Source of the DNA: Myxococcota bacterium
GTDB taxonomy: Bacteria; Myxococcota; Kuafuiibacteriia; Kuafuiibacteriales; Kuafuiibacteriaceae
Direction: 5' to 3'
Length of the DNA: 64,000 nt
Assembly: GCA_039024635.1 (NCBI GenBank)
Contig: JBCCQA010000017.1
Location: 23,624-87,623 of the forward strand
Shown: positions 1 through 40,264 of the stretch, piece by piece
Layout: each line of letters begins with the position of its first letter
Numbering within the stretch: the stretch's first letter is position 1
Position numbers and translations under genes: made by a program
The notes under the pieces: model-generated
Told to the model about the DNA's origin: nothing
The model's input: only the letters and a program-made list of their open reading frames with translations
Databases searched by the model: none

Positions 1-1578
1 TGACCAAAGTATTTGGGAGTCACTGGTCGGAAGCCTACATGCAGAGCTTTCTCTTCCCTCGACGGACGCGACCGACCAGCGATCACTAGCTTCCACGGAG
101 GCTTCAGATGAATCAATGATGGGCTGAGCTCGCTCGAGGAGGTCCGCGAGAGCGGCTCGTGCGGTCGTCGTCACCTGACTCCAGCTCTCAAAGCGGTCGC
201 TCTGAGACGCCTCCATTAGCCTTCGTATGAATTGCTTCATCGCGGAGGGAAGGACGGGCGTCGTGTGGCTACGCTGGGATCTCTCGAGTCCTGGACTTGA
301 GATCACCAAAGTCCAAGCGTCTTCGGGTGCCTTACCTGTCAGCGCGTAGAGCAGGGTTGCGCCGAGTGAGTACATGTCCGAGCGCTCATTCGATCTCTGA
401 GGGGCCGACGTTGTCTCGGGTGCCTGATAGCCAGCGTCGTTGGCATCAGCGGACGTGGAGATAGAGCCCAACGCGAAATCCGTCACCTGGCTGCGCCCGT
501 CTTTCCGAACCATCACGGTGTGAGGACACAGAGCTCGATGGATGACACCCTTCTCACAGGCGGCAGCTAGGCCGTTTGCCACATCCAGGGCGAGTTCGAG
601 AGCACGACGCACCGGCAGCGGACCACTCGCTTCGACCAGCTCGGCAAGCGATAGGATAGCGACGTGCTCGAAAACGAGCATGGAAGGCTTGCTGTCGGCA
701 TCCAGGACACGAACGATGTTGGGATGATCAAGCGACGCTAGTCGTCTCATCTCCTCCAAGCACCGAGACGGGGTCTCATCAATTCCCTTGAAGATCTTCA
801 CCGCTACCGTCATCGCCAGCGACTCGTGGAAAGAGCGAAAGGTCACAGAGGCGGCGGTCTCGCGCATTAGCTCCTGGAGCGTAAAGCGACCTATCCGCTC
901 ACCTGGGCCAAAACGACGTAAGGTGGACTCTTCCCTTGAACGATTCGCTTCTAGGGAAAAATCAGCCTGCATCCTCTCGCCAGAAAGCCTATTGCCAGCA
1001 GCGGTCTTTGAGGAAGAAACCACCGCGTAGTTCGTATCCGCGTCCGATATCATAGTCGACCAACGCTGGGCCCGGGACTTCGCCTTCTTGATAGGTCGAG
1101 GCTTCAGTTCGCCCTTTCGCTCTGCCTCTTCCAACTGGCGGAGTCTTGTTCGTGTAATGAGTCTTCCTTTCTCGACAAGGATCCCTCCTGTCACTGGATG
1201 TAGAATATCGCGAGTGGTGCGCTTCCCGACCAGTGGCTCAATATCCAGGACCTTGTCGATGAACTCCCCTTCCTTTAAGCCGACAACGACGTCCGGTCCA
1301 AAAACGACGACTTGACACGCGAGTCGAGAATCTGACGAAACATGCGCCAAAGTGGCTAGGGTTAGCTCCTCTCGCTTGGTCTTCGGAGAGACTGAGGTTG
1401 CTGGACCTGACAAGCGAACGTGGCAGGTAGCACACAGACCGTTTCCTCCGCAGGCCGCCAGCATTCTGCTTCCGTGGGACTGAAGGGCGTCGAGCAATCG
1501 CGACTCGGGCCCAACGTCAAGGAAGGTTGTTCGACCAGAGCCTCTTCGCAGTTCTACCGTATGTTTGACAGACGACAT
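1..1578 (-). CDS. 2Fe-2S ferredoxin-like module fused to a degenerate Hanks-type kinase (pseudokinase); 3' end outside the window
   Basis: Absent from the ORF track because it has no stop in the window. My reverse-strand translation from ATG 1578-1576 stays open to position 1 (about 526 codons). N-terminus MSSVKHTVELRRGSGRTTFLDV..AACGGNGLCATCHV..LACQ gives C-x5-C-x2-C-x35-C (adrenodoxin-type ligand spacing). The kinase-like part keeps VAVKI, YQAPE and SDMYSLG. It reads HRALCPHT instead of HRDxKxxN, DFA instead of DFG, and has no G-x-G-x-x-G loop. Confidence 0.8.
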   Translation of the reverse strand, partial: MSSVKHTVELRRGSGRTTFLDVGPESRLLDALQSHGSRMLAACGGNGLCATCHVRLSGPATSVSPKTKREELTLATLAHVSSDSRLACQVVVFGPDVVVGLKEGEFIDKVLDIEPLVGKRTTRDILHPVTGGILVEKGRLITRTRLRQLEEAERKGELKPRPIKKAKSRAQRWSTMISDADTNYAVVSSSKTAAGNRLSGERMQADFSLEANRSREESTLRRFGPGERIGRFTLQELMRETAASVTFRSFHESLAMTVAVKIFKGIDETPSRCLEEMRRLASLDHPNIVRVLDADSKPSMLVFEHVAILSLAELVEASGPLPVRRALELALDVANGLAAACEKGVIHRALCPHTVMVRKDGRSQVTDFALGSISTSADANDAGYQAPETTSAPQRSNERSDMYSLGATLLYALTGKAPEDAWTLVISSPGLERSQRSHTTPVLPSAMKQFIRRLMEASQSDRFESWSQVTTTARAALADLLERAQPIIDSSEASVEASDRWSVASVEGRESSACRLPTSDSQILWS

Positions 1579-1593
1579 GGATCCGAACTCTCG

Positions 1594-2577
1594 CTAGCCA
1601 AGGTCCGCCAGCTCATCCAAACGGAGCATTTCTTCCCTCGCCCAACGAGAGCCATGTACTTTCTTCAGTGCAAGCAACTCGTCCCGGGCTTCGGCGCAGT
1701 CTCGGAACCTGTCCCTTGGGTTCTTTGCGAGACCTCGAAGTATGAACGTCGAGAGATCAGCCAGACAAGGACGACCCGGATGAGCGGCTTCGAGTGAGGA
1801 GCAGACTCCGTTCATATGGCCAACGAGAAGTTCACTACCTTGACCTCCAAAGGGCATGACGCCGGTGGCGGCCTCGTAGAGGAGGACGCAAACTGCGTAG
1901 AGATCCGATTGAGGCGTGGCTCCGCTGCCCGCGATCTGTTCCGGCGGCATATACGCTGGCGTACCAAGAACCCAACCTGTCCGAGTGGCTCGTTCTGAGT
2001 GGACAACGCTGTCCCGACCGCGAACTCCCAGAGCCAGGCCGAAGTCGAACAGGACGACCTTGAGCCGGGGCACCATACGAATGGAGATATTGGCCGGCTT
2101 GATGTCGCGATGAACCCACCCGCTCTGATGAACCGCGGTGCACGCGGACAGGAGTTGAAGACCGATCGTGACGAGATCCTGGATGGCAAGACTACCCATC
2201 CTGAGAAGAACATCCTCCAGTGTGAGCTCCGCTAGTCGCTCAAGCACAAGAACCTTTCGACCGTCTACCAGGTCAAGTTCGTCCAGGAGCTGCACGACGT
2301 GAGGGTGCTCTATGGAGCTCAGCGCCTCTACTTCTCTTTCGAACCTGAAGGTACCCGAGATTGAGCTCCCTTGTTCCACGGGTAGCTGGATCTTAAGAAC
2401 AACGGGTCTTCCGGAGACCCGATCAAAGGCCTCGATCGCGTCTGAAGAACCGCCACAACCGATAACCCTCTTGACGTCAAACCGGCGAGAAAGCTGTCTT
2501 GGTAGCCCTGCTCCGGAGGAGTCCCGCCTTCTAGGAGCTCGCGGCCAGAGCGACTCGGGGACCTGCTGATTTACCAT
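1594..2577 (-). CDS. Ser/Thr protein kinase (Hanks-type), catalytic motifs intact
   Basis: ORF 1594..2655. Motifs IGCGGSSDAIEAF, VVLKI, HRDIKPANI, DFGLA, GTPAYMPPE. ATG at 2577 (MVNQQ..) preferred over GTG at 2655, which would overlap the upstream gene by 125 nt. Confidence 0.85.
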   Translation of the reverse strand: MVNQQVPESLWPRAPRRRDSSGAGLPRQLSRRFDVKRVIGCGGSSDAIEAFDRVSGRPVVLKIQLPVEQGSSISGTFRFEREVEALSSIEHPHVVQLLDELDLVDGRKVLVLERLAELTLEDVLLRMGSLAIQDLVTIGLQLLSACTAVHQSGWVHRDIKPANISIRMVPRLKVVLFDFGLALGVRGRDSVVHSERATRTGWVLGTPAYMPPEQIAGSGATPQSDLYAVCVLLYEAATGVMPFGGQGSELLVGHMNGVCSSLEAAHPGRPCLADLSTFILRGLAKNPRDRFRDCAEARDELLALKKVHGSRWAREEMLRLDELADLG

Positions 2578-3166
2578 GGGCTTCAAGCTCCTCAAAAATC
2601 GAACGGCTGTGAACAAACGACTTGTTTGCCTCACGAATAAGCTTGTCTTCGACACTCTCCAGCTCCGGCCGATTTAACCAGTCCGAAAGCCTACCGCGGA
2701 TCTTCTTCGAGCTTCCTATCTCCCCGAAGTCGAAGAAGCTCCAGGTCTTCTTTTCAGACCAGCCGGCCTGCGCTCGCCGTAGAATGACCGCGCCCCCGGT
2801 CACATCTCCGAAGTAGCGGACGTAGGCGTGGCCAAGAACGAAGAGAGGGCTGCGCTCTGCGGCCGATTCGATAGCTGTCGCGTACTCCAGGGAGGCCTCA
2901 CCAATCTTCAATCGCCTGCCTTTGAGGTCTTGCCGAAGTCGGGATGCTCGATGGAGACGCCAATCGCTGAACGGGCCGAATAAGCCGCTTGATAGAACGC
3001 TCTCCATGGCATCGTATACCGGCAGAAGCTGAGCCATGTAGTGGCTAAACTCGTCCAGTGAGACTTCACTTGCGAGAAGCCGCCGGGCAAATCGAGTGCC
3101 CTCGATGCTTCGGTGAGCGTCATCGGTTGAGTCTCGAAGACTAGCTGTCAGGAATGGCTGTTTCAT
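2531..3166 (-). CDS. Haem oxygenase (HO-1/HmuO/BphO family)
   Basis: 211 aa. LRDSTDDAHRSIE matches the proximal-His helix signature (L-x-x-A/S-T-x-x-x-H-x-x-x-E). GHAYVRYFGDVTGG matches the distal-helix signature AHAYTRYLGDLSGG. Confidence 0.8.
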   Translation of the reverse strand: MKQPFLTASLRDSTDDAHRSIEGTRFARRLLASEVSLDEFSHYMAQLLPVYDAMESVLSSGLFGPFSDWRLHRASRLRQDLKGRRLKIGEASLEYATAIESAAERSPLFVLGHAYVRYFGDVTGGAVILRRAQAGWSEKKTWSFFDFGEIGSSKKIRGRLSDWLNRPELESVEDKLIREANKSFVHSRSIFEELEAHGKSAGPRVALAASS

Positions 3167-3821
3167 TCAGTTGATCCTCCTTAGTAATGTTCGAGTCTAG
3201 CTTTGAGAAGACTCCGTCGAGATCAGCAACCAGGTCGGAAGTCCCTGCCGCGAATAGGTCGGATACAGGAGCTACATTCGAGGTCTGGAGACCGGCTAAG
3301 GAGCGCTGCAGATGCCGCACGGCCGCTACGGCTGCTCGGCGATTTCGCACCTCCGCCCAGAGAGCCTCTTTCAGGCGTCGACTGGCCTCTCGAAGGTCGT
3401 TGCTGCCCGACTCGGTCGAGAGCGCTTCGAGGGCTCGCTTCTGACTCAGCATCTCCGCTCGAAGCTCGATGATGGTCTGTTCCTTGATCTGCAGAGCGGC
3501 CATCAACTTCTCAATGCTCGGGCTCTCGGTATCTCTTGGTTCCCCTCTAGCATCGGACTCAACGGGCTTGGGTGGCGCGAGCTGCAGAGCGCCGCTGTGG
3601 GCCAAGATATCGCCGACTGAGTCTTTGAGGTAGCCTCGTGCTACCGCCTTGAGACGATTGCACGTTGCAGAGTCAAAGATGCCGCTTTCAGTAATGGAGC
3701 GGTCGGGATCGTCTACGTACTTCTGGCAGGCTAGCTCGATCGTCTTAGAGAGCTCAGGATGACCTCCTTCGTTGTCAGAGAGGTGGGCTTTGAGCATCCG
3801 ATAGACAACATCAGATTTCAT
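3141..3821 (-). CDS. Hypothetical protein, N-terminal globular part plus long coiled-coil-like region
   Basis: 226-aa ORF. ATG at 3821 lies 3 nt after the stop of the upstream gene. Heptad-like stretch IEKLMAALQIKEQTIIELRAEMLSQKRALEAL. No family recognised. Confidence 0.6.
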   Translation of the reverse strand: MKSDVVYRMLKAHLSDNEGGHPELSKTIELACQKYVDDPDRSITESGIFDSATCNRLKAVARGYLKDSVGDILAHSGALQLAPPKPVESDARGEPRDTESPSIEKLMAALQIKEQTIIELRAEMLSQKRALEALSTESGSNDLREASRRLKEALWAEVRNRRAAVAAVRHLQRSLAGLQTSNVAPVSDLFAAGTSDLVADLDGVFSKLDSNITKEDQLNETAIPDS

Positions 3822-3824
3822 TTC

Positions 3825-4742
3825 TCAGACTCCGAATGCGAATAGGATGCCCGCGATGGCTAGCGCAGCACTTGCTAGCCCGAGAACCACCGCATGCCGA
3901 TTCCTACGCGGCTCAATTGGTACTTCTGTCGCCTCCACAGTCAGAGACTGAGGCGAAACCGGGGAGTCACTGATGACATGATTCACTCGCATCTGCTCTC
4001 GTGTCGCCGTCTCCCACTGAACATCGACGCGGAGACCCTTCATAGAAGGTCGATGCACTGGTTGAGGGACTACCGGAATAGGAGGAGAAACGGTCAGCGA
4101 AGGAGGCGGCACCACCGGAACGCCGTACTTCGAAGCCTGGGTTTCTTGAAATGAGCAAAGTCCTTGCCATCTCTGATAGACCTCGACGCAAGCAGTCTGG
4201 AGGGTCTTTTGTGACGTGCTTTCCGACAAAGCGCCGATCGGTTCACATGCAAGAAGCGACTCAATGAAGAGTCGCATCGCGTCGAAGGTCGGGTCCTCAT
4301 GATTCGCGTCTACGAGCATGAAGCCAAGCCTCACTAGTTCCGGGTGGTGTTCGTAGAGCTCAGCCAGGCGGGGTGCCATTTTGATGAAAGACTCCAGGTG
4401 CAGCATGGAGATCAGTACTAGAATTGAAGCTTGAGGTGATGATGCAATAGCCCTGAGCTTTCCAAGATCATCACAGGGGACGATCCGCACCTCACGATCG
4501 TCTTGTGCCATGAACTCGAGGCTTCCGCTCTCGTAGGACAGGTCCGGTTCCGATTGGTACTGACTCCGCAGGGGATCATCCTTGATGGAGCTTGCAGCCA
4601 TTAGATGCGTGAGGCCGCTTTGCGAGCACAAATCAAGCAGCCGAACCCGCTTGCCGGTATCTCGAGCTACGCGAGAAAGGGCAAAGGCTACAGTTCCGAC
4701 TGCAGCTGGCGCCCCTACATGGGCTATGACTATCGTGCTCAT
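3825..4742 (-). CDS. ParA/MinD-fold protein with degenerate Walker A, Pro-rich linker and C-terminal TM anchor
   Basis: MSTIVIAHVGAPAAVGTVAFALSRVARDTGKRVRLLDL resembles the deviant Walker A region (KGGxGKT) but lacks both lysines. C-terminus HAVVLGLASAALAIAGILFAFGV is hydrophobic. ATG 4742 overlaps the upstream stop (ATGA). Confidence 0.5.
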   Translation of the reverse strand: MSTIVIAHVGAPAAVGTVAFALSRVARDTGKRVRLLDLCSQSGLTHLMAASSIKDDPLRSQYQSEPDLSYESGSLEFMAQDDREVRIVPCDDLGKLRAIASSPQASILVLISMLHLESFIKMAPRLAELYEHHPELVRLGFMLVDANHEDPTFDAMRLFIESLLACEPIGALSESTSQKTLQTACVEVYQRWQGLCSFQETQASKYGVPVVPPPSLTVSPPIPVVPQPVHRPSMKGLRVDVQWETATREQMRVNHVISDSPVSPQSLTVEATEVPIEPRRNRHAVVLGLASAALAIAGILFAFGV

Positions 4743-4939
4743 GGTCCATCCCACTTGAACGTGTCGAATACAGCAAGCTTCTCCACCTCCGCCGAAGGTG
4801 AGGATGCCTGGCTCGCCACCGATTCGGTGTCCGGACCCTCGTGGCCAAGCTCGCGAACAAGCTCTGCCGGATCAGGGCGCTTGGCATCCATGAGATCGTG
4901 CATCCAGTTGACACACTCTATGATCGAACCGGAGCTCAT
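4739..4939 (-). CDS. Small hypothetical protein (66 aa)
   Basis: ORF whose ATG (4939) overlaps the kinase stop and whose TGA overlaps the next ATG, both as ATGA. Supported only by this coupling. No family recognised. Confidence 0.4.
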   Translation of the reverse strand: MSSGSIIECVNWMHDLMDAKRPDPAELVRELGHEGPDTESVASQASSPSAEVEKLAVFDTFKWDGP

Positions 4940-6345
4940 AGCTCTTGGTCTCCAATAGGAACGGCCGGGAAGCTGAGTATCTCGAGCTCACCGTTTGCGT
5001 CGGCTCTGAGCTCGATTCCATCTGGAGGGATGGGCAGGACCCTTGGGAAGCCATCCGCACCGGCGAGCCATCGAACGACAGAAACGACTTCGCTGAACTC
5101 TCCCCCATCGAGAACTAGTTGGCCGAATTCGACAGCGAACAAAGGGAGTCGAGTCTCCCGCACGGCCGTCTCGACGCGGCCGCCTTCATGGAGCCTCATG
5201 GCTACGTGCCTGGTTCCAAGTGGTTCCCATAAAAGAAGCTCTCGAGCAGAGAGCCAGCTCGAGCGCAGCGGAAGGTCGAGGAGGCTCGTAAACTCGTGTA
5301 TTGGCGAGGAGCCTTCAAAGTTCTGTACAGAGCAGCTTTGAACCCAGCCAATCTCTGCTCCGTGGGTCGCGACAATAGCGCTTCGATCGGGAGAAACAGC
5401 GAGGTAGCGCAGGTTCCTGTCGTCGGCTCGTAGCGTTTCTCTGTGGCATGAGCCAAGACGCCGAACCCGTCGACGCTCGCTTATGACGACCTCATCTCTG
5501 CATACATCCAACAAACGAAGTGGTTGAGCGGAGAGCCTCCAGCTAGCTTGGTCTGCGCCCAGCCATTGGACGCCGTCTCGATGCATGAACCAAGCCCAAT
5601 CCGCGCCGAACGAGAAGTCCTCAGCATCGAGCATCGAAGCCACCCAGTCTAGATCTGGGAGACGACGGCTCGGGGCTCCACTGAGAAGGCAAGCGAGCAA
5701 ACCGTCGAGTCCCGAAGACCAACGATGGTGTCGTGCGAACCTGCTACGCTCGGAGGGCAGGGGGAAGGAGCCGTTGCGCGCTTCTAATCCTACCACACCC
5801 AGCGAGTAGGCGTCGGACTGACGGAGGCCGCAGTGCCACAGCCGTTCTGGTGCCAGGTACTCGAGTGAGCCCTCGAACCGACGATGCACGGATGTGTACT
5901 CGCTTGAAGCGGCTGATCCGAGATCGGCGAGCCGCCAGTCGAGCCCCACATCTCTTCGAAAAACAAGGATGTTCTCGGGCTTCACATCTCGATGAAGCCA
6001 ACCCCATTGGTGAATGCGACCAAGCGCCAATGCAATGCCCCGGACAAGTGAATCAAGGTCCGAGTCCGCGAGCCGCCTTTGGAGAAGGACGCGCCTCAAT
6101 GATCCGTCCGACGCGATTGGCATTGCGAAGTACCAGCATTGCGAAGACTGGTCGAAGCCCACGTCGAGGACCCGTGGGGTTCCGTCTCCATCCAAGGCAA
6201 GCAGAGCATTGACCTCGCTCCACCACTTTGGTCCTGTGCACATCTTGACGGCGACGGGGTCTTCGTTCCAACCCCTCCTGGCAGCTACGACTGTTCCTTG
6301 CGCGCCGCTGCCCAGGCTACGCTCGAAGTGTGCGTATCGGTCCAT
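4936..6345 (-). CDS. Ser/Thr protein kinase with about 200-aa C-terminal domain of unknown function
   Basis: ORF 4936..6480. LGSGAQGTVVAA, VAVKM, HRDVKPENILV, DLGSA (DFG variant), LEYLAPE. ATG at 6345 (MDRYAHFERSLGSG) sits 2 nt after the upstream stop and is preferred. Confidence 0.85.
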   Translation of the reverse strand: MDRYAHFERSLGSGAQGTVVAARRGWNEDPVAVKMCTGPKWWSEVNALLALDGDGTPRVLDVGFDQSSQCWYFAMPIASDGSLRRVLLQRRLADSDLDSLVRGIALALGRIHQWGWLHRDVKPENILVFRRDVGLDWRLADLGSAASSEYTSVHRRFEGSLEYLAPERLWHCGLRQSDAYSLGVVGLEARNGSFPLPSERSRFARHHRWSSGLDGLLACLLSGAPSRRLPDLDWVASMLDAEDFSFGADWAWFMHRDGVQWLGADQASWRLSAQPLRLLDVCRDEVVISERRRVRRLGSCHRETLRADDRNLRYLAVSPDRSAIVATHGAEIGWVQSCSVQNFEGSSPIHEFTSLLDLPLRSSWLSARELLLWEPLGTRHVAMRLHEGGRVETAVRETRLPLFAVEFGQLVLDGGEFSEVVSVVRWLAGADGFPRVLPIPPDGIELRADANGELEILSFPAVPIGDQEL

Positions 6346-6347
6346 TT

Positions 6348-6965
6348 CTAGTTGAGGAGCTCCGCGAGGATCTCGGCGTGAGAGCGGCTTGCTTCCCTCG
6401 AACGGCGAACGCCCTCTAGCACTTGCTCCGAGCCGCAGATGAACTTGCCCTTCCCGCATCCAGGAGCGGTCTGCAAACACCCAAGCCCTCCGACGGCAAA
6501 CTGCCCGAGAAAGCCCTCTAGCATGCCTTCGGCGAGAGGATCGAGGTCACTCATCTCGGAAGCATAGGCTTCGCCAATTCCGTCTGAGAGTTGGACTTCG
6601 AAAAAGCCGGAGGATGCGTGTTCCCATCGGAACACGAGTTCTCCTAGTCCGCTTCCTTTCCAAAGGTCCCGTATGAGTGCGTCCAGCTCTGCCATGGTTC
6701 GCTCTCTGATTCCAACCGAGTCGGCAGTGCCGAGCTCGTCCTCGAACCGTCGAGCAAGACGACTGCCGTATCGTACGCCGCACTGTCTGAGCACAGATGC
6801 TGAGGCATCGCCGAGTTCAAAGCGCAGGGCAGAGACGAATCCGATTAGCCATGAAGAATCAACTGCGATTAGACGCGTATTTCCAGCGCTTCTGAGAACA
6901 CCGCGAGCGGCTTCGAATCGAAGATAGGATGATCGCGAGAAGTGATTGAGGTCCACACGCGTCAT
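6348..6965 (-). CDS. V4R-like (4-vinyl reductase/BchJ-type) small-molecule-binding domain protein, divergent
   Basis: RLIAVDSSWLIGFVSALRFELGDASASVLRQCGVRYGSRLARRF mirrors the N-terminal V4R pattern seen in the paralogue at 7687-8349. C-terminal GCLQTAPGCGKGKFICGS is Cys-rich but departs from E-x-x-C-x3-G-x3-C-x-F. ATG 6965 overlaps the upstream stop (ATGA). Confidence 0.55.
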   Translation of the reverse strand: MTRVDLNHFSRSSYLRFEAARGVLRSAGNTRLIAVDSSWLIGFVSALRFELGDASASVLRQCGVRYGSRLARRFEDELGTADSVGIRERTMAELDALIRDLWKGSGLGELVFRWEHASSGFFEVQLSDGIGEAYASEMSDLDPLAEGMLEGFLGQFAVGGLGCLQTAPGCGKGKFICGSEQVLEGVRRSREASRSHAEILAELLN

Positions 6966-7447
6966 GCTGCGCGCTCCCGCTCCCCCAAGACCTCGACACA
7001 ATCCTTGAGGTATGGTTCCAGGAGGCCAAAGGCTTCTGCCGAGAGCTGCTTTTCACAGGTCGTGAGCAGACTCGAGTAGGAATCCTTCACGAATTCCTGC
7101 GACAGACCGATTCCTTCGAGAATCGTCTTTAGCCAAAGGAGAAGGTTGTCCCTAAGGAAGAGCCGATCGTCCTTCACCATGGCGAGCACGCAGTATCGAA
7201 GAACAAGGCTGAGGTCTCTCTGCGCCTTCCTCTCCCCTTCCTTGTACCTCTGGGAAATGTCTGAGTATCTGGAGAGGACACTTTCCAGTACCTCGTCGAC
7301 GATCAAACCTTCACGTTGTTCGACTTCCGCGCTGGCTTTGAGCCGACCGGGAAGGCCGTCGCTGTACTGCGTCAACGACGCTGTCTCCTTAGAGGTCAGG
7401 TAGCGTCCCTCGGCTGACTGCAGCATGTTCTCAATTTGTCCGTTCAT
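6962..7447 (-). CDS. Phycobiliprotein-fold globin (allophycocyanin/phycocyanin-like), attachment Cys absent
   Basis: 161 aa, the length of an APC subunit. QSAEGRYLTSKETASLTQY..GRLKASAEVEQREGLIVDEVLESV aligns with ADAEARYLSPGELDRIKSF..RRLRIAQTLTENRERIVKQAGDQL. ERKAQRDLSLVLRYCVLAMVKDD aligns with [23 protein letters not shown]. The R-D pair is kept and the Cys position is Ala. Confidence 0.75.
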   Translation of the reverse strand: MNGQIENMLQSAEGRYLTSKETASLTQYSDGLPGRLKASAEVEQREGLIVDEVLESVLSRYSDISQRYKEGERKAQRDLSLVLRYCVLAMVKDDRLFLRDNLLLWLKTILEGIGLSQEFVKDSYSSLLTTCEKQLSAEAFGLLEPYLKDCVEVLGERERAA

Positions 7448-7453
7448 CTCTTC

Positions 7454-7687
7454 TCACTCCCAGTTGAAATCGCCAAAGATGGCTATGGTTTCGATGGATT
7501 CGCCACACGACTTGGATGGCCTTACACTTTGATTCTGACGCCTGAGTCCTACGGCGAAGAACTCCTCGACTCGATATGAACGCCAGCTCTCCGCTTCGAA
7601 CGACTCGGCCGAAGCGCTCGCTTGAGCCAGGTCACCGAACCACTGGCGCACTTCGGTTTGAGGCCAAGGCATCGCTAGCGCAGACAC
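7454..7687 (-). CDS. Small hypothetical protein (up to 77 aa)
   Basis: GTG at 7687 overlaps the stop of the upstream V4R gene. An internal ATG near 7670 is an alternative start. No family recognised. Confidence 0.4.
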   Translation of the reverse strand: MSALAMPWPQTEVRQWFGDLAQASASAESFEAESWRSYRVEEFFAVGLRRQNQSVRPSKSCGESIETIAIFGDFNWE

Positions 7688-8349
7688 TACAAACGCTCCA
7701 TGATCTCATTCGCTGAAGCACCTTCTTGAACCCAGAACTGAGCTGCGTTGATCCGCTTTGATGAGCCAACTAGGAACTTGCAGAATCCCTCGCCCATTGA
7801 ATAGCACTGGATCTCAATGGCGCTGAGCTCTCTCTTGGCGAGTCGACCGAACACGGCGGCGAACATTCCGGCATAGTAGTGACAGACGACTTCACCGACG
7901 TTTCCGATGCTCTTCGCCACGGCGGAGTCATAGAGGTCGACGAAGATAAGTCCTTCGGACCGGTGGCTCAGGTCGTACTTCCACACGCCCCACCCCGAGG
8001 CCTGCAGCGGCCACCACCATGACTCGAGGAGGAACCCGAGGGCTGCGCCATCTGGCTGATATCCGAACTGGGTTTCGAATCGGCCCATGAAATCATCAAT
8101 GTCTTTTTCGCCCCATTTAAACCCGCACTGATACATGACTTCGCCCGCGGCATCTCCAAGCTCGGTTTCGAGCGCCGCTTGAAATGAAACAACGAAGTCT
8201 TCGGTGGCTAGCATCAGTCGGCTGCCGAAAGTATTCAGCAACTTCGTTCCCGAAGCGCTTGGCGCAAAGAACCGGCGTGCGCTGAAACGGTTGTGCAGGA
8301 CGAGTCTTCCTTGCGCAGAGCTCTCTGAGACGTGCATTTCTGAAACCAT
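7687..8349 (-). CDS. V4R domain protein
   Basis: ORF 7687..8436 (TTG). ATG at 8349 (MVSEMHV..) preferred. FVVSFQAALETELGDAAGEVMYQCGFKWGEKD, and the canonical C-terminal AIEIQCYSMGEGFCKFLVGS (E-x-x-C-x3-G-x3-C-x-F-x-V). Confidence 0.7.
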   Translation of the reverse strand: MVSEMHVSESSAQGRLVLHNRFSARRFFAPSASGTKLLNTFGSRLMLATEDFVVSFQAALETELGDAAGEVMYQCGFKWGEKDIDDFMGRFETQFGYQPDGAALGFLLESWWWPLQASGWGVWKYDLSHRSEGLIFVDLYDSAVAKSIGNVGEVVCHYYAGMFAAVFGRLAKRELSAIEIQCYSMGEGFCKFLVGSSKRINAAQFWVQEGASANEIMERL

Positions 8350-8463
8350 CGTGCTGCGACTGTAGGCAGGCTTGGGCGGATTGCAAGGTGTGGGTGTCAC
8401 TTTTTTGACCGAAATCGACCAGCCTCTTGTCGTCAAGTGTAGGCGTAGAGGGCAGGGGAGCTT

Positions 8464-8561: not shown

Positions 8562-9041
8562 ATGAAAGACGTCACCATTGAGGGTCTTGGTCAGCCCGTT
8601 TGTGTGAAGACAAACAAGAGGATCATCGATGCCCTCCTTCAAGGCGGTAAGCCGCCTCTGATGGCCTGCGGCGGGAAGGGGCTTTGCGCGACCTGCCACG
8701 TGTTCGTAGATGCCGAAGCTGATGCGCTCTCGCCGCAAACGCCTCGAGAGCGAGCATCTTTGGCTGCCCTTCGTGGCCGGACGAATGCCAGCCGTCTTGC
8801 TTGCCAGGCAAAGGTCCGTGGACCTGTTCGTGTTCGACGCCCGGACGGTCGCTTTATTGAAGCAGCCATGGACGTAGAGTCCTTCGTGGGAAAACGAGCG
8901 ACCGACGATATTCTCCATCCCGTCGATGGGCGCCTTCTGATTGAGCGCGGGAAGCTGATCACGCGCTCGCGAATTGTTCAGCTCAAGACAGTGGATGTGG
9001 ACGTCGGTGAACTGAAGAAGCGCTGCCTCACTGTCGTCTAG
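8562..9041 (+). CDS. 2Fe-2S ferredoxin (adrenodoxin-type Cys spacing) with about 60-aa C-terminal extension
   Basis: MACGGKGLCATCHV..LACQ gives C-x5-C-x2-C-x35-C. The extension FVGKRATDDILHPVDGRLLIERGKLITRSRIVQL is paralogous to LVGKRTTRDILHPVTGGILVEKGRLITRTRLRQL in the gene at 1-1578. Confidence 0.8.
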   Translation: MKDVTIEGLGQPVCVKTNKRIIDALLQGGKPPLMACGGKGLCATCHVFVDAEADALSPQTPRERASLAALRGRTNASRLACQAKVRGPVRVRRPDGRFIEAAMDVESFVGKRATDDILHPVDGRLLIERGKLITRSRIVQLKTVDVDVGELKKRCLTVV

Positions 9042-9134
9042 TAGTGGCCCTTATGACGCTCGCTAAGTCTGGATGTGGCGCCGTGTTGTTCCGGTGATTC
9101 GGATCGGGGCGATGTCCGAAGGTCACCGCGCCTT

Positions 9135-12100
9135 CTAGGGCTCGGGAATGAGCTGGCCCGGGGTCCATGGACCGCCTGCATCTCGGAGGCGTCGTTCGAA
9201 GGCGGGAAGCTTGTCGCTCAGGAAGGCGTTGAGCTGGGCACGCAGCGCAGCGAACGCGGTCTCGGCGATCTCTACTTGCGCACGGTGGGTCTGGGTCGGC
9301 CCGTAGGTTGAATACGATGTGCCGGCTCGGAGGTTGTCGAGCCGCATCGCGATGGTATGCCGGGGACGCTCACCGCCTTCCTGATAAGCGGGGGACCCGA
9401 GCACTTGGACGACCATGGTGTCTAGCTCCAGTCGCAGGCGTCGATACTCCTGATCCAGCGCGTCGGGGGCCGAAGGCGTGTGCTCGAGGGCCTTGGCCAA
9501 GAAAGAGAATCGCTTGCCGAGCCGCTTGGTACTGCGAGCAAAAGCGCTCACGCCCCGTTGAAGCTCGGCCACCCGCCGCTGAAAGGCCATCGCCTCCTCG
9601 GGCGATGCGCCCTGCAGGCTACCTTTTCGTAGCTGAACCACGTCGAACTCCACCGGGCCGTCCAGCACCTTGGCAGCGCCGTCGATCTTCTCGAGCAGGG
9701 TGACGCTGTAGCGACCTGGAGCAGCCAGTGGGCCGACTGGGTCGTCCTGCTCACCGTAGTAGGATGGCTCTTTGACGTCCACGGCGTCCGGCGCCGGATG
9801 GCGCAGGTCCCACGCCACTCGATGCATTCCCGCCTTGGTCTCGCCGCGGACGCGACGCACGGTGCTACCCGCCCCGTCTCTCACCAAGAGGATGATCTCG
9901 GGATCCCTTTGTCGACGTTCTCGCTCCACCGCTTCGAAGCCTTCGAAGGGCGTATCCTTGCCGGCCTTGATGAGCTTCTTCTCTCGGGCCTGCCGGGCTT
10001 TGGCCAATGAGCGCAGCGGCTCACGAAGGTAGTAGGTGAAGACAGCCCCAAAGGGCGGGTTGGGCGCCACGTAGTAGTTGTGGCCTTGGTAGGCCTTTTC
10101 CTTGCGCCCTAGAGTCCCTCTCGGCAGGTACCAGTGCGCCTTTCGAACCGAGAACAGCTTGGCCGGGGTCCCTGCCATCAGCTCGGCGCTCACCTCTCGC
10201 AGGGCCGAGTAGTCGTCCAGGATCCAGAAACCACGTCCAAAGGTAGCGCCCACCAGATCATTCTCCCGCCGCTGAATGGCCAAGTCGCGGAAAGAGATCG
10301 TCGGGGCCTTCTTGCCTCCGAGCTTTAGCCAGTTCTTTCCGCCGTCGACGGTAAAAAAGACGCCGAACTCGGTCCCGGCAAAGAGCAAGCCAGGCTTCAC
10401 ATGGTCCTGGACCATCCGCCACACGAGGTGTCGATCGGGTAGATTCCCTACGATGCTGCGCCAACTCCGTCCTCGGTCCGTGCTCTTTACGAGGTAGGGC
10501 TGAAAGTCGCCGTTCTTGTGATCGTCAAGAGCGACGTAGACGGTGTCGACGTCGAACAAATCGGCCTTGATGTCGTTGATGAAGGCCTGCTCGGGGACGC
10601 CGGGCAGCGAAGACACCGGGATCCTCCGCCAACTTCCGCCACCGTCTTCGGTCACCTGGAGAAGTCCGTCGTCGGTGCCGGCGTAAATCAAACCGTCCTG
10701 CTGGGGAGATTCGGCCAGCGAGGTGACGGTGCCGAAAGTGGACATCGCGTACATGTCCCAAGGCGAGTCCCAGCTCCACAGTCGCTCCATCATGGGCTCG
10801 CCGAGCCGCTGGATGCTTCGGGTCAGGTCGCCGGAGATGGCGGTCCAAGAATTGCCTCTGTCCTCCGAGCGCCACACCCGCTGGGACGCGAAGTAGAGCC
10901 GCTTCGGGTCATGGGGGCTGACCAAAATGGGCGCGTCCCAGTTGAAGCGTTCAGGTGGGTCGTCCGCGTCGGGCTGAGGCTGGATGTGAACGATCTCCCC
11001 CGTCCGACGGTCGACCCTGACCAGGTTTCCGCCCTGCCACTCGGAGTACATGATGTCCGGGTTGCCGGGCTCGGTCGCCGGTTGATGGCCGTCTCCACCC
11101 AAGGTGATGAACCAGTCCGCGTTCCGAATGCCGTTCGAGCTGTCGGTTCGGGACGGGGCGCCCTGAGTGTTGTTGTCCTGCGTGCCTCCGTAGACGTTAT
11201 AGAAGGGCTCGGCATCGTCGACCGCCACCTTGTAGAACTGGGTGACGGGCAGGTTGGCGAAGAAACGCCAGGTCTCGCCGTGGTCGAAGGACTCGTAGAT
11301 TCCTCCGTCCGTGCCGGCGAGGAGGTAGTCTGGATCGTCCTTGCGGAAGTTCAAAGAGTGGTTGTCCGAATGCTTGAACTTCTCCGACATATTCTTGAAG
11401 CTCTTCCCGCCGTCGTCCGAAATCTGAAAGCGCACGTCGACGAGGTAGATCCGATCGAACACGTGAGGGCTGGCTTCGAGCTCTTGGTAGTAGTGGGGCC
11501 CGGTGGCGCGAGAGACGGTGTCGGAACGACGGGTCCAAGAGCTTCCCCGGTCAGTGGAGCGATAGACCCCGCCCTTTCGTCGGTTTTCTTCGATCGCCGC
11601 GTAGAGAACGTCAGGCTTCATGGGAGAGATGGCGAGGCCGATCTTGCCCATGTTGCCTTTCGGTAGGCCCTTCTTCAGCCGCTCCCAGGTCTCGCCCCCA
11701 TCGACTGAGCGATAGATGCCCGACTCTGGGCCGCCGCCCATGTAGGCGGCCACGGTTCGTTGTCGCTGCCAGGTTGCTGCATACAGTAGGTCCGGATCTC
11801 GGGGGTCGATCTCCAGGTCAGTGGCCCCAGTCCACTCGCCCACCCGGAGGACGTTCTTCCACGTCCGGCCTCCGTCAGTGCTCTTGTACACGCCTCGGTC
11901 TCCACCCTTGGACCACAAGGGTCCCTCGGCCGCGACCCAAAGCGTGTTCGAGTCGCTCGGGTGAATGATGATCTTGCCGATGTGTTCGGAGGCCTTCAGG
12001 CCCATGTGTGTCCAGCTGTGGCCTCCATCCCCCGAGCGATGAAGGCCGTCGCCGTAGGCGACGTGTCGGCCGCCCACGTTCTCTCCCGTCCCCACCCAGA

Positions 12101-14596: not shown

Positions 14597-16225
14597 TCAG
14601 GAGTCGTCTAGTCGGACTGCTTTCCAGATGGTCGAGATGACGACGGATCCCTCGCCCACTGCCGAAGCCACCCGTTTGACCGAGCCGGCTCGAACGTCGC
14701 CAACGGCATAGACTCCAGATGTCGACGTCTCGAACTCGCTCTTCTTTCCGGCCCCAGTACCCGTGAGCACGAAGCCTCGGTCGTCCAACTCGACCAAGTC
14801 GCCGAGCCAACCGGTGTTGGGCGCGGCGCCGATCATGATGAACAGGGCACAATCATCGAGGCGCTGCGTACGGCCGTCGCGATGCTCGATGGTGACGCGT
14901 TCCAGCCTGTCGTCACCCCACAGGTCACTAACCTCGGTTTCGAAGTGGATTGTAATTCCTTGCTCATCTTCGAGCCTTGTCGAAAGGTAGTCCGACATAG
15001 ATTGGGAGAGGCTGACTCCTCGGACTACCAAGTGGACGTGCTTGGCTACGCGGCACAGGTACATCGCTGCCTGACCTGCCGAGTTGCCACCGCCAATGAT
15101 GACCACGGTTCGACCCTCGCAAACCCGTCCTTCGCTTCGGGTAGCGGCGTAGTAGATGCCGGCTCCTTCGAAGTCTTGCAGCCGGTCCAATGGTAGTCGT
15201 CGGTATTGGACTCCAGTAGCGATGAGAATGGCTCTTCCATGAACCGTCGCCCGGTCCCCGGTTCCGTCCCCCAGTTCAAGTGAGAATGCACCAAGGCCCT
15301 TCTCTATGGATCGAACGGTGCGAGGAACGGCGAACTGTGTACCGAACTTCAGGGCCTGAATCTCGCCTCGCCAAACTAGGTCCGAGCCTGAGATTCCGGT
15401 CGGGAAACCCAAGTAGTTCTCGATTCGAGACGAGGTTCCCGCCTGCCCGCCGACCGCGAGTTCATCAATGACCAAGGCCTTGAGACCTTCGGCGCCAGCA
15501 TAGACGGCAGCTGCAACGCCGGCCGGACCGGCACCGACGATTATGAGCTCATACCGGCTTCCGTCCTGAGCGCTCCGATCCAGACCGAGGAGTCGAGCCA
15601 GCGATGAGGGCGTTGGTTCGTTCAGGAGCTGGTCCTTACCAAAGGTCACCATAGGCCCGGCCTTAGTGCCGCAACGCTTTGCGAGCTCTTCGGCTTCAGG
15701 CGTGTCGACCTGAAGCTCTCGAAAGGGTATCTTGTTGCGCTCAGCGAAATTGGCGATGTGGGCTATTCTGCGGTCAATTCGGGCGCCAACGATCGTAAGC
15801 GCAGAGTCGCCCTCCTCGAGCTGTCGACGTCGCCGTGCCGCGAACACGGTCATTATGATGTCGCTCATCTCCGGTATGCGAGCCATGAGTCGGAGCAGGT
15901 CGTCTCTGGCTACGGCAAGAACTCGCGTCATGGCGAAAGCCCGCATCGTGAATCGCTGGACCCCCCCCTGAAGAAAAGAGATCTCTCCCGTGAACTGTTT
16001 GGGCCCCAAGCCGATCGAGAGGTAGGGCTCGAGGGTAGAGTCGTCCACGAGTCGGAGGTCTCCTTCGAGCACGTAGTGAAAAGTGTCGATTGGGTCGCCA
16101 GGCCTTATGACGACCTCTCCTTCCTCGAAGACGATCTCCCTACCAACGGTGCGCAGAGCCTCCACGTGGCTGTCGTGGAGCGGCGTACGTCGCATCTGGG
16201 ACAAGTCGGGGGCCAGAGACTCCAT
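14597..16225 (-). CDS. Cyclic-nucleotide-binding domain fused to a thioredoxin-reductase-like flavoprotein lacking the CxxC
   Basis: The N-terminal cNMP-binding fold contains GEISFLQGG. Two dinucleotide folds, IIVGAGPAGVAAAVYA and VVIIGGGNSAGQAAMYL. Where TrxB has SACATCDG, this protein reads YYAATRSEG. The ATG lies 5 nt after the RND gene stop. Confidence 0.8.
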   Translation of the reverse strand: MESLAPDLSQMRRTPLHDSHVEALRTVGREIVFEEGEVVIRPGDPIDTFHYVLEGDLRLVDDSTLEPYLSIGLGPKQFTGEISFLQGGVQRFTMRAFAMTRVLAVARDDLLRLMARIPEMSDIIMTVFAARRRRQLEEGDSALTIVGARIDRRIAHIANFAERNKIPFRELQVDTPEAEELAKRCGTKAGPMVTFGKDQLLNEPTPSSLARLLGLDRSAQDGSRYELIIVGAGPAGVAAAVYAGAEGLKALVIDELAVGGQAGTSSRIENYLGFPTGISGSDLVWRGEIQALKFGTQFAVPRTVRSIEKGLGAFSLELGDGTGDRATVHGRAILIATGVQYRRLPLDRLQDFEGAGIYYAATRSEGRVCEGRTVVIIGGGNSAGQAAMYLCRVAKHVHLVVRGVSLSQSMSDYLSTRLEDEQGITIHFETEVSDLWGDDRLERVTIEHRDGRTQRLDDCALFIMIGAAPNTGWLGDLVELDDRGFVLTGTGAGKKSEFETSTSGVYAVGDVRAGSVKRVASAVGEGSVVISTIWKAVRLDDS

Positions 16226-19200: not shown

Positions 19201-19344
19201 GACACTGGTGACGACGACTTGTGGAAGAGCTAGATCCGGATACCACTCAATCGGGAGAGTCCGAGATGTCGCCGCTCCGGCCAGGGTGATAACGATGGCG
19301 ACGACAGAGGCGAAGACCGGGCGACGGATAAAGAAGGCGTACAC
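16231..19344 (-). CDS. RND efflux transporter permease (AcrB/HAE-1 type)
   Basis: 1037 aa. MYAFFIRRPVFASVVAIVITLAG.. start, 12-TM architecture with two large periplasmic loops, conserved GLVVDDAIVVIENIER. Confidence 0.9.
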   Translation of the reverse strand: MYAFFIRRPVFASVVAIVITLAGAATSRTLPIEWYPDLALPQVVVTSVYTGATSETVESTVTSVLEEAINGVEGMRYVESTSSNDGVSTITVTFERSRDLDIASVDVQNRVASVQGRLPPEVRAIGVDVRRATQAIILGIGMYAENDEYDSVFISNYVDRYIRDELRRIKGVGEARIFGERKYAMRIWVDPIRLAANQLSANEIVRALEEQNIQVAAGQIGQPPVPDTTILQVALSVNGRFDSAEEFEKLVLRSDEAGGLVRLEDVGRAELGAESYSSALRFNRREAVGLGIFQLPNSNALEIEQAVKKRLEELSVQFPPGLEYVIAFNPTEIVSESIEEVLYTLVGTILLVILVIFAFLQRWQSTLIPAVTIPVSLVGTFIFVGAFGFSINTLTLFGLTLATGLVVDDAIVVIENIERHAREQGLKKRAAALSGTSEVFGAVIATSLVLIAVFAPVAFFPGTTGVMYQQFALTIAFSIALSSLTALTLAPALAGLLLDVQPPPQRGPFALFNRILDAGTRRFEIVLKAVLRRGKSIAILIFLGLVGLTYGLNTLLPASFVPAEDQGYFITVIQAPPGTSLDETSRIMAKVEDILQADEDVANTFAILGFSFEGTASNRATIFSTFTPREERPGPEHEAKAVVQRVFGPMMMVPDAIVLPFEPPPIRGVGNLGGFTFELQDRAGIGATALDEAAQELIGAAGEQSQIGLVFTTYSSGDPQLHIQLDRERSRSLGVSVDEAFGAIQVMLGSAYVNDFDLAQRSYRVYAQAEPVYRDEPDSLQTLYVRSSSGRMIPLEALVTTEERAAPQIIKHFNLFRSATLTGSPAPGFSSGDSIEAMSGVASDLPLGFDYSWSGLALEEVQSGNQTTILFLFGLILVYLVLSAQYESYVLPVIILTSVPMALLGALGAQWLRGLQNDVFCQVGLLMLIGLASKNAILIVEFAQQERREKGLDPLSAAVSAASIRLRPILMTSFAFILGVLPLVLADGASKFSRQSLGTAVFGGMLLSTLVNMVFVPLFYVLVARFAPPPELDPRES

Positions 19345-19353
19345 GCTAGGACC

Positions 19354-22937: not shown

Positions 22938-23430
22938 ATGCGGGTGAGAGGGCGGGTCGCCAAGCTCATCGAAAATGACGGAAATCACGGCGGCACACCG
23001 CGAGCCTTTCGCAATCGAGTTCAATTATTGTGTCTTCGTGCGCCACCAGTGGCTTGTTCAGACGTGGAAGAGAAAAAAGCCGCGTCCTGGCACTTCAAGA
23101 CCGTCCGGCCCGACGACAGGCCCCGTCCAAGGGTATTCGAGGTTCATCAAGTGATCTGGCCGACTGTTCGAAGTCTGTCGGGTCGATCCAGCGGAGGCGG
23201 CACCGAGACCTCTCAGCGTCTGGGTCAGTAGGTGGAACTGAGCGAGCAGGATTTCCCGGACACCGAGGATCTTGGGTCCCAGGTTGGCGAAGCGGTCTTG
23301 GACCAACTTCCAGCAGAGGCCACGTGCTCGCGCCAACGCACGGCGATTCGTTCGAACCGTCCGGCAGGCGCAAGATTATACATCGCTTTCGTAAGCGCAA
23401 GTCTCAGCTCGGCCGACGATACTACGAGAC

Positions 23431-24258: not shown

Positions 24259-24359
24259 CCAACCGTGTAAGCCGTTGAGACATGGGTGGGATACTCGTCT
24301 AGAGCTGTCACGTGCACAGGGCTGCTCGTTCCGCAGAGCCAAGAGCAAGTACACTTGCT

Positions 24360-37844: not shown

Positions 37845-37990
37845 GCCCCCCTGCTCGGCCCCTGCGGGCCGTCCCCTCTCCGAGGCGGTCCTGATGGGGT
37901 CCCAAACGGACATCACGCGCCAAACCCGGCCACGATTGGCATCCGTTGGTCCTCGACAGCACTGGTGCCGTTCGCGAATTTCCTCGCGTG

Positions 37991-38677: not shown

Positions 38678-38872
38678 CCCGGCGCTACATCGGGCTTGTG
38701 CTTCGGATTCACCCTTAGCATCTCACCCTCCGGGGGACATTTTGCGCCACATCGAGGCGCATCCCGGCGTCGTCAAGTCCTCGACACCTCGAACGCCACT
38801 GCGCGAATTTCTCCCTCGATGGCGGCTGCGGCGCAGGACTGGCGGGAGGATCCTCTGGGCGAAGGGCCCTCG

Positions 38873-39877: not shown

Positions 39878-40264
39878 GGCGCTGGCTAGACTTCACAGCA
39901 CCCGTCGCGTGTCGAGGCAGACGAGGATTCTATGGGCACCAAGTGAAGCTTGATGAAGCTTGGGGGGGGGAGGGCGCTCAGGTCCGTCTCCTGACGTCAG
40001 TACGTGAGCAGGACCAGCTTGCCCCCGCCTGCATAAGACCTGGGTAACTTACCCTAGTTACTAGCCGACATAGGTCGCGAGTCGACGTTATTGGCACAAC
40101 CGGTCCCATTCAAACGAACGTTCGAGGCTGCGCCGTCGAGTCGTTTCCGCCACGCTGACACCGTGGCAAAGCCGTTTGAGCTACAGAGCACGGCCCTCGG
40201 GCTTGGCTCTGAGCGCTCGCTAAGCCACAGCCTTGTTCGCCAAGCGCTCGGGCGCCGGGCCACC

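Follow-up and report, generated by a model that had tools for sequence, protein, structure and literature searches.

The 161-aa open reading frame at 6962..7447 on the minus strand of the window, the 64,000-nucleotide stretch of DNA analysed here, encodes a bilin biosynthesis-associated globin (BBAG), a phycobiliprotein paralogue of non-photosynthetic bacteria. It belongs to a known family and does not represent a novel protein type: BBAGs of non-photosynthetic bacteria received their description and name from Rockwell, Martin and Lagarias (PNAS 2023, PMC10151467), and a first-pass annotation of this DNA had overrated the novelty of the gene. We establish below its fold and family, the composition of the surrounding cluster, the alanine at the column of the attachment cysteine, and the retention of Arg77 and Asp78. 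Taken as a whole, the locus is probably explained by a BBAG that is encoded in a bilin-biosynthesis cluster, holds its bilin non-covalently, and works in a complex with V4R and ferredoxin proteins to which kinases are linked.

Family membership was supported by profile, sequence and structure comparisons. The BBAG frame starts with ATG, with the purine-rich GAGAAGAG a short way upstream, and its TGA stop shares an ATGA with the start codon of the gene that follows. The Pfam Phycobilisome profile PF00502 matched the protein with E 8.9e-15 and 55.4 bits (cut-off 22.2), across residues 12-150 and profile positions 8-151 of 155, and an AF2 model built without ligand adopted the full phycobiliprotein fold (pLDDT 95.6, pTM 0.89), bearing out the earlier call of a phycobiliprotein homologue. 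Foldseek aligned this model to allophycocyanin and phycocyanin chains over ~161 columns (TM 0.75-0.83, probability 1.0), at sequence identities of 16-24%. Near the N-terminus, residues 12-18 read A-E-G-R-Y-L-T, of which R15 and Y16 were almost invariant in an alignment of 50 relatives. An exhaustive HMMER search with the BBAG returned 301 representative relatives (a word-indexed search gave just one), and 105 of them lay at E<1e-10, compared with E 8e-5 for the best allophycocyanin beta match in the PDB. All relatives with a readable gene context were of the cluster type. The highest identity to any relative found was 46%, and because the gene sits in the usual BBAG cluster of bilin-making genes, we regard it as a divergent member of the known family. 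NCBIfam held no BBAG model, a single-protein query found no match among species-representative genomes, and related loci were retrieved with a four-sequence alignment as query. Most of the ten closest BBAGs are known only from raw-read assemblies.

The cluster runs in the order 2Fe-2S ferredoxin/V4R-A, small ORF, BBAG, V4R-B, kinase, three ORFs, heme oxygenase, kinase, and ferredoxin-kinase fusion/bilin reductase. Following the canonical definition of a BBAG cluster (PMC10151467), a heme oxygenase lies in the same operon and a pre-PcyA-type reductase lies adjacent; as in clusters of the BBAG-1/BBAG-3 type, two V4R proteins and an Fe-S protein are co-clustered, in the same order in related loci. 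Syntenic clusters with the same reductase lineage were found at L045, L047 and L048, and the same architecture recurred in 40 further loci. The first-pass annotation had correctly placed a heme oxygenase near the globin gene; it had missed both V4R genes, the 2Fe-2S gene and the three kinases, and it could not see the reductase, which starts just outside the window.

Upstream of the BBAG gene, a small conserved ORF (7454..7687, minus strand; at most 77 aa, gene call on the source contig) ends in F-G-D-F-N-W-E. Homologous 93-aa ORFs occupy the same position in L045 (E 1e-8) and L047 (E 6e-5), and a C-terminal F-x-x-F-x-W-D/E stands there in 11 related loci (L004, L005, L008, L010, L013-L016, L045, L047 and L048). 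The first V4R protein, V4R-A (7687..8436, minus strand), matched Pfam V4R PF02830 with E 1.7e-15, and its C-terminus bears a weak likeness to the V4R domain of MsvR. The longest reading frame would give 249 aa. Translation probably begins further inside it, near 8337 or 8214, as the gene caller gives 175 aa and relatives align from residue 33 on. Divergent from this operon, at 8562..9041 on the plus strand, lies a 159-aa 2Fe-2S ferredoxin-type protein (Pfam Fer2, E 3.9e-9) that is 52-55% identical to the Fe-S genes of L002, L003, L004, L045 and L047 and 42% identical to that of L005. Downstream of the BBAG gene, V4R-B (6348..6965, minus strand, 205 aa) had no Pfam match and was recognized as a second V4R-type protein by BLASTP to V4R-A (E 4e-12 over ~200 aa); it is 34-43% identical to the gene at the same position in related clusters.

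Further downstream, also on the minus strand, the Ser/Thr protein kinase STK1 (4936..6345, 469 aa by gene call; Pfam Pkinase, E 6e-25) begins 2 nt after the end of V4R-B, and in each of the 18 closer loci whose sequence extends beyond V4R-B, the next gene is a kinase. Three ORFs come after it by gene call: a 66-aa ORF (4739..4939), a 305-aa protein with a hydrophobic C-terminus (3825..4742) and a 226-aa ORF (3141..3821). The first two had no significant match in Pfam or NCBIfam and no homologue in related clusters; the third gave sub-threshold Pfam matches only. The heme oxygenase follows (2531..3166, 211 aa; PF01126, E 5.3e-27, 95 bits), then the Ser/Thr protein kinase STK2 (1594..2577, 327 aa by gene call, with the longest ORF reaching to 2655; Pkinase, E 1.9e-32). 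Last in the row is STK3 (1..1578, 526 aa), a fusion of an N-terminal 2Fe-2S domain (Fer2, E 1.3e-7) to a Ser/Thr kinase (Pkinase, E 1.6e-22), of which only the stop codon falls beyond the window. The ferredoxins of related clusters share 41-47% identity with its N-terminal domain.

The ferredoxin-dependent bilin reductase (289 aa; PF05996 Fe_bilin_red, E 2.6e-21) starts just beyond the left edge of the window, at 8947..9816 of the source contig (L001); its last 28 codons and stop occupy 3..89 of the plus strand, where the translation equals the C-terminus of the L001 gene. In a numbered alignment, its active site reads T/N/E/E at Synechocystis PcyA positions E76/H88/D105/D220, and T/N/E at the first three of these was invariant in seven relatives. 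Asn at His88 and Glu at Asp105 agree with the pre-1 entries (Table 2 of PMC13446030), and the enzyme has the full pre-1 active-site pattern of Glu at Asp105, Asn or Thr at His88, and no Glu76. Seven related loci instead carry a pre-3 signature, A/T/D/R or, in L004, S/T/D/R. The active-site signature of the reductase is thus pre-1-like, and a pre-1 cluster type would make the globin a BBAG-1. A rough neighbour-joining tree, built without the reference sequences POZ53557 and MCC5789364, placed the lineage of this reductase apart from both the pre-3-signature group and PcyA. The reductases of related loci were found with a small profile of PcyA fragments; the cluster reductase as lone query had missed them. 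Of the pre-1 reductases, POZ53557 has been tested and showed little activity in co-expression (PMC13446030). By BBAG sequence, the nearest relatives of the globin include proteins from pre-3-signature clusters, while its own reductase has the pre-1-like Asn/Glu pair. The protein does not fit the BBAG-2/photoglobin type, which is marked by a B12-binding partner or domain and by an RGMC or C-x-Q-D motif: the cluster has no B12-binding domain, the motif reads A-Q-R-D, and RGMC is absent from the protein.

We then considered the pigment attachment site. Three independent phmmer alignments, to the allophycocyanin beta chains 4f0u_B, 8imk_G and 7eyd_B8, each placed K74-A75-Q76-R77-D78 on A-C-I/V-R-D, with a gapless spacing to L-R-Y identical to that in allophycocyanin beta chains. 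The canonical Cys column is therefore Ala75, with Arg77 and Asp78 kept, in agreement with the first reading of this site as a Cys-to-Ala change beside an intact Arg-Asp pair. On the significance of Cys loss, the first reading needed correction. Among 130 representative relatives, 39 have a Cys at the canonical column and 91 do not, and 14, including two of the closest (P0004 and P0006), contain no Cys at all. The C-x-R-D motif, which here reads A75-Q76-R77-D78, occurs in some family members only and does not define the family. By these comparative data, the absent attachment Cys is the majority state of the BBAG family and no peculiarity of the 6962..7447 protein, and the canonical thioether is unavailable to most of the family. 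The flanking pair is far better kept: the Arg77 column holds Arg in 112 of 130 relatives and the Asp78 column holds Asp in 126 of 130.

BBAGs bind bilins without lyases and fluoresce weakly (PMC10151467). What they share with the present locus is a ~160-aa phycobiliprotein-like globin in a non-photosynthetic host, clustered with two V4R proteins, a 2Fe-2S protein, a heme oxygenase and a pre-PcyA-type reductase, as well as the lack of lyase genes and the retained Arg-Asp pair; the two tested proteins carry C-x-R-D, in contrast to A-Q-R-D here. A structural precedent for non-covalent binding comes from the photocobilins, also phycobiliprotein-related globins: in the crystal structure of SasPcob, biliverdin is bound without a Cys link and one conserved Asp makes the key pyrrole contact (Zhang et al. 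2024, PMC10979010). Photocobilins differ in belonging to the BBAG-2/photoglobin lineage, in having a B12-binding domain, either by fusion or as a partner, of which we found none in this cluster, and in a bilin flipped by ~180 degrees. By analogy with the photocobilin globin, the most likely mechanism would be non-covalent bilin binding anchored on Asp78, within a V4R/Fe-S complex.

In such a mechanism, the heme oxygenase would convert heme to biliverdin, and the reductase with the pre-1-like signature would reduce biliverdin with electrons from the cluster ferredoxin, possibly to 3E-phytochromobilin, the product of tested pre-1 enzymes. The BBAG would keep the bilin in its phycobiliprotein pocket with no thioether link; hydrogen bonds would run from Asp78 to the pyrrole nitrogens and from Arg77 to a propionate. 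A guide to the rest of the assembly is the slr0144-slr0152 operon of Synechocystis sp. PCC 6803, which contains the same gene types: two V4R proteins, ferredoxin 5 (Slr0148), the BBAG Slr0149 and the kinase SpkG (Slr0152). Slr0144-Slr0149 interact physically and co-purify (PMC9880817), and SpkG is required for ferredoxin 5 phosphorylation (PMC11863333). By analogy with Slr0144-Slr0149, the BBAG probably acts in an assembly that also contains both V4R proteins, the small protein and the ferredoxin. The embedded Ser/Thr kinases would either regulate this complex or read its state. The two systems are not identical: in Synechocystis, the reductase and heme oxygenase genes have been split off from the cluster, which has a link to the assembly and repair of photosystems, whereas both enzymes are in the cluster here, and three kinases are present here, one of them a fusion with a ferredoxin domain. 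The only cyanobacterial relative that we retrieved (L006) is 27% identical to the BBAG.

Among the alternatives, the one that fares best is that the globin no longer binds bilin and acts within the V4R/ferredoxin complex as a subunit with a structural or regulatory task, or that it binds another ligand. The closest syntenic relatives, L045 and L047, read K-S-Q-E-D, so that Arg77 is replaced by Glu and is not conserved within its own sub-lineage, and a distant BBAG subgroup has lost Cys, Arg and Asp alike (S-x-K-H/N); some members of the family may thus not bind bilin. Biochemical precedents point the same way, as an Asp-to-His change lowers the biliverdin affinity of photocobilin (PMC10979010) and the tested BBAG-1 was poorly chromophorylated (PMC10151467). 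However, Arg77 and Asp78 are both kept in the present protein, the latter being nearly universal among relatives, and the gene lies in a heme oxygenase operon beside a bilin reductase, the very association that defines the bilin-binding members of the family. We consider loss of binding here unlikely.

Covalent attachment through another Cys, which the first-pass annotation had left as an option, appears very unlikely. The protein has three cysteines (86, 131 and 150), and the most plausible candidate would be Cys86 in L-R-Y-C, on the same helix as the canonical site and three helical turns after it. It is the second most common Cys column (37 of 130 relatives, 17 of the 40 closest). Related loci often read L-R-Y-C as well, and in BBAG-2 proteins the Cys lies in a non-canonical motif, RGMC (PMC10151467). 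Were Cys86 a substitute for the lost residue, its occurrence should follow that loss, and we rejected this compensatory hypothesis: Cys86 is present in 10 of 39 relatives with the canonical Cys and 27 of 91 without it (Fisher p = 0.68), and the remaining 64 of those 91 lack both. Conservation is poor at Cys131 (19 of 130) and Cys150 (10 of 130), and the 14 relatives devoid of cysteine, the close P0004 and P0006 among them, likewise count against a substitute. The comparison thus lent this option no support.

A true light-harvesting allophycocyanin subunit, as a cyanobacterial remnant or in a photosynthetic host, can practically be dismissed, even though ApcB matches the BBAG in length (161 aa for allophycocyanin beta), in overall fold with an N-terminal helical extension (TM ~0.8) and in the R-D and L-R-Y motifs, and allophycocyanin chains are its best PDB matches in sequence and structure: identity to phycobiliproteins is low (~22% to ApcB), the attachment Cys (Cys81/82) and an alpha partner are missing, the NCBIfam apcB equivalog TIGR01337 scored 21.9 bits against a cut-off of 228.15, and the closest relatives lie on metagenome-assembled genomes labelled Myxococcota, Polyangia, Bradymonadaceae and Bdellovibrionales. 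From its relatives, the host would be Myxococcota-like. A six-frame translation of the whole window contained no second phycobiliprotein-like ORF, and Pfam scans of all cluster genes and ~30 other larger ORFs returned no bilin lyase, linker, photosystem or chlorophyll-synthesis protein. The earlier statements that lyase and linker genes are absent nearby, for the ORFs scanned, and that the protein has no antenna role both stand, the latter also fitting the published BBAG work (PMC10151467).

Returning to the non-covalent BBAG within a V4R/ferredoxin complex, the kinases add a further dimension. Every close cluster contains embedded Ser/Thr kinases, a PP2C phosphatase also occurs in relatives, and a ferredoxin-kinase fusion is present here; together, these features suggest a signalling role, one not discussed in the BBAG papers cited. 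In a more specific and rather doubtful version, the sensory input of a dedicated Ser/Thr phospho-signalling module would be formed by the BBAG together with both V4R proteins, the ferredoxin and the small protein, and the module itself by the embedded kinases, PP2C (in relatives) and the ferredoxin-kinase fusion (here). The Cys-less BBAG would be the bilin receptor, binding its ligand reversibly and non-covalently. In this way the cluster would inform the cell of heme breakdown, redox state or light, and would not serve pigment storage or carriage.

Collectively, the locus adds a divergent, Cys-less BBAG with its Arg-Asp pair intact to a family regarded as the evolutionary source of light-harvesting phycobiliproteins. 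In its complete cluster, a reductase with the pre-1 signature is combined with a gene order that we otherwise saw in pre-3-signature clusters. The embedded kinases, joined by PP2C in some relatives, provide a testable lead to the function of BBAG clusters. If the proposed signalling module is real, it would mean bilin-dependent signalling in non-photosynthetic Myxococcota-like bacteria, and would likely represent the ancestral role of the cyanobacterial slr0144-slr0152 operon.

The 161-aa product of the minus-strand ORF at 6962..7447 matches the Pfam Phycobilisome family over almost the full profile (PF00502, E 8.9e-15; 55.4 bits, cut-off 22.2), and allophycocyanin beta chains rank first among PDB sequences (4f0u_B, E 8e-5). 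All three PDB alignments set the query k-A-q-R-D beneath A-C-I/V-R-D without gaps and with equal spacing to L-R-Y, which places Ala75 at the position of the attachment Cys and retains Arg77 and Asp78. An AlphaFold2 model made from 50 relatives (mean pLDDT 95.6, pTM 0.89) aligned in Foldseek over its whole length (~161 columns) with allophycocyanin and phycocyanin chains (TM 0.75-0.83, identity 16-24%). The first-pass annotation, which had called a phycobiliprotein homologue with Cys replaced by Ala and the Arg-Asp pair kept, and had proposed the Phycobilisome HMM and the attachment-Cys column as its check, thus correctly recognised a family already published in 2023. That work (Rockwell, Martin and Lagarias, PNAS 2023, PMC10151467) introduced the name bilin biosynthesis-associated globin (BBAG) and the underlying arrangement, in which "pre-PcyA" bilin reductases of heterotrophic bacteria sit beside one or two phycobiliprotein paralogues in clusters that also encode a heme oxygenase, an Fe-S protein and a pair of V4R proteins. 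The window protein has the genomic setting and fold of the BBAG family and is a new, divergent member of it, with 44% identity to its nearest HMMER relative.

The BBAG gene lies within a tight minus-strand operon, between a V4R gene (V4R-A, 7687..8436, PF02830) followed by a small ORF (7454..7687) and a second V4R gene (V4R-B, 6348..6965) whose ATG overlaps the BBAG stop; V4R-B was recognised by BLASTP to V4R-A (E 4e-12), its Pfam search returning no match. Then follow, on the same strand, a Ser/Thr kinase (4936..6345), three ORFs for which family searches gave no match, a heme oxygenase (2531..3166, PF01126, E 5e-27), a second Ser/Thr kinase (1594..2577) and a third kinase with an N-terminal 2Fe-2S ferredoxin domain (1..1578). 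A free-standing 2Fe-2S protein (8562..9041, plus strand) is divergent to the operon. The ferredoxin-dependent bilin reductase (plus strand, PF05996, E 2.6e-21) lies beyond the left edge, its last 28 codons being window 3..89, and was recovered on L001, an 11.5-kb contig of a public sequencing run that carries the exact window BBAG and reaches past that edge; two more genes lie beyond the reductase there, one with histidine-kinase ATPase and receiver domains and the other with a PilJ domain. The reductase and ferredoxin-kinase genes converge and, as annotated, share ~90 nt at their 3′ ends (window 1..89), one of which may be mis-called. The whole window holds a single phycobiliprotein-like ORF, alongside three kinases, two V4R ORFs, one heme oxygenase and two ferredoxin domains. 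A scan of the cluster genes plus ~30 of the other larger ORFs met no lyase, linker, photosystem or chlorophyll-synthesis domain, in agreement with the initial remark that lyase and linker genes are missing nearby. G+C is 57-58% in the cluster region (window 1..8000) versus 60-67% in the remaining window, compatible with lateral acquisition. The C-terminal V4R domain of V4R-A has a sub-threshold match to NCBIfam MsvR (E 9.5e-9), a redox-sensitive archaeal transcription factor carrying a V4R domain, a hint that cysteines of the cluster V4R proteins may serve in sensing a ligand or the redox state.

Absence of the attachment Cys is a common trait in the BBAG family. An exhaustive HMMER search with the window BBAG returned 105 representative relatives at E<1e-10 and 301 at the looser threshold of E<1e-3. 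Among the 130 single-domain representatives, aligned with MAFFT, the canonical column holds Cys in 39, Gly in 29, Thr in 19 and Ala in 14, while Arg77 is retained in 112 and Asp78 in 126. Fourteen relatives, two among the closest, have no Cys at any position; together with the column counts, this makes loss of Cys with Arg-Asp kept the majority state. Seven relatives (P0008, P0013, P0051, P0064, P0121, P0129 and P0145) are ~835-980-aa proteins of 3-7 tandem phycobiliprotein-like repeats, and in the three scanned (P0008, P0013, P0051) Phycobilisome was the sole Pfam family matched.

From these data we infer, as the most likely mechanism, a pathway in which the heme oxygenase would produce biliverdin, the cluster ferredoxin would feed the reductase that reduces it, and the BBAG would hold the resulting bilin non-covalently, with Asp78 as anchor. 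Representative BBAGs bind bilins without lyases and are photo-inert and weakly fluorescent (PMC10151467). As a structural precedent the photocobilin globin domain serves best: it binds biliverdin without a cysteinyl link through one key Asp, replacement of which by His lowers affinity (PMC10979010). Bilin binding may be absent from part of the family, since Arg77 is replaced by Glu in the nearest syntenic relatives and a distant subgroup lacks Cys, Arg and Asp alike; that the window BBAG, which keeps Arg77 and Asp78, is itself a bilin-free structural or regulatory subunit seems unlikely. Less probable still is covalent attachment through another Cys, as the first-pass annotation had allowed: Cys86, present in 37 of the 130 relatives, shows no association with the canonical Cys (Fisher p = 0.68), and Cys131 and Cys150 are little conserved, so the idea found no comparative support. 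A true light-harvesting subunit is hardly credible, its score of 21.9 bits on the ApcB equivalog model lying far below the cut-off of 228.

Across five genome loci (MAG labels Bdellovibrionales, Bradymonadaceae, Polyangia, Myxococcota and Leptolyngbyaceae) and 38 further metagenomic loci, annotated with profiles made from the window proteins, one order recurs: Fe-S, V4R, small ORF, BBAG, V4R and kinase (sometimes two), followed, in loci whose sequence extends far enough, by reductase and heme oxygenase. The small ORF (77-93 aa) keeps its position between V4R-A and BBAG in L004, L005, L008, L010, L013-L016, L045, L047 and L048; its conserved C-terminus reads F-x-x-F-x-W-D/E, often directly after S-C-G, and it contains several R/E-x-F-F motifs. 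Neither Pfam nor NCBIfam gave a family match for this ORF, which is probably an undescribed cluster component. In the distant BBAG subgroup (L020-L044) the chromophore motif reads S-x-K-H/N, and such a protein usually shares its cluster with a second BBAG reading K-W-R-x-D or K-C-R-G-D, which suggests a heterodimer of one degenerate and one competent subunit.

A profile from PcyA fragments detected reductases in seven loci, all with Thr, Asp and Arg at Synechocystis PcyA positions His88, Asp105 and Asp220, and with Ala at Glu76 in six (Ser in L004). This is the published pre-3 signature (Table 2, PMC13446030), and the accompanying BBAGs mostly read S-C-x-R-D, L004 being the lone exception with Gly. 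The window-contig reductase reads Thr/Asn/Glu/Glu at E76/H88/D105/D220; the published pre-1 signature combines Glu at Asp105 with Asn at His88 (PMC13446030), so by active-site signature the cluster appears pre-1-like. Tested pre-1 enzymes yield 3E-phytochromobilin (PMC13446030). Six relatives of this reductase (49-65% identity), one an NCBI protein from a "Myxococcota bacterium" MAG, have the identical signature, and two of them were traced to three loci (L045, L047, L048) syntenic with the window cluster. Besides three kinases and a PP2C phosphatase, these contain the conserved small ORF, here of 93 aa, and a 161-aa BBAG that is 43% identical to the window's and reads K-S-Q-E-D. The shared signature and synteny therefore place the window cluster in a coherent sub-lineage. 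L048 comes from the same run as the window source contig (SRR22824307) and represents a second, different organism in the sample, with a reductase of the same lineage (64% identity) and a BBAG at 43%.

Elsewhere in the window, 14597..16225 (minus strand) encodes a cyclic-nucleotide-binding domain fused to a thioredoxin-reductase-like pyridine nucleotide-disulphide oxidoreductase and adjoins an RND efflux operon (16231..23024). Five AraC-family regulator genes fall within 18 kb (23431..25316 and 37946..41296), and a 915-aa CHAT-domain protein lies at 31556..34303.

The clusters in the window and in L002-L019, L045, L047 and L048 contain Ser/Thr kinase genes as integral components. A kinase immediately follows V4R-B in 18 of 18 closer loci with sequence at that position, and in several loci it separates the BBAG and V4R genes from those for reductase and heme oxygenase. 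These kinases parallel SpkG of the Synechocystis slr0144-slr0152 operon, a Ser/Thr kinase on which phosphorylation of the cluster ferredoxin depends (PMC11863333). One Fe-S profile detects both the free-standing ferredoxin and the ferredoxin domain of the third kinase, and the latter shares 41-47% identity with the ferredoxins encoded in related clusters; given the role of SpkG, apparent substrate type and enzyme are fused in one protein. The homologous Slr0144-Slr0149 proteins co-purify (PMC9880817), and by analogy with them and with SpkG a BBAG/V4R/ferredoxin complex would be expected, under or upstream of Ser/Thr phosphorylation. Kinase position, PP2C in relatives and the ferredoxin-kinase fusion lend support to a signalling role, which we put forward tentatively and with low confidence. 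PMC10151467 does not discuss kinases, the word occurring once, in a reference title, and it is absent from PMC13446030; the kinase association thus goes beyond both accounts of these clusters.
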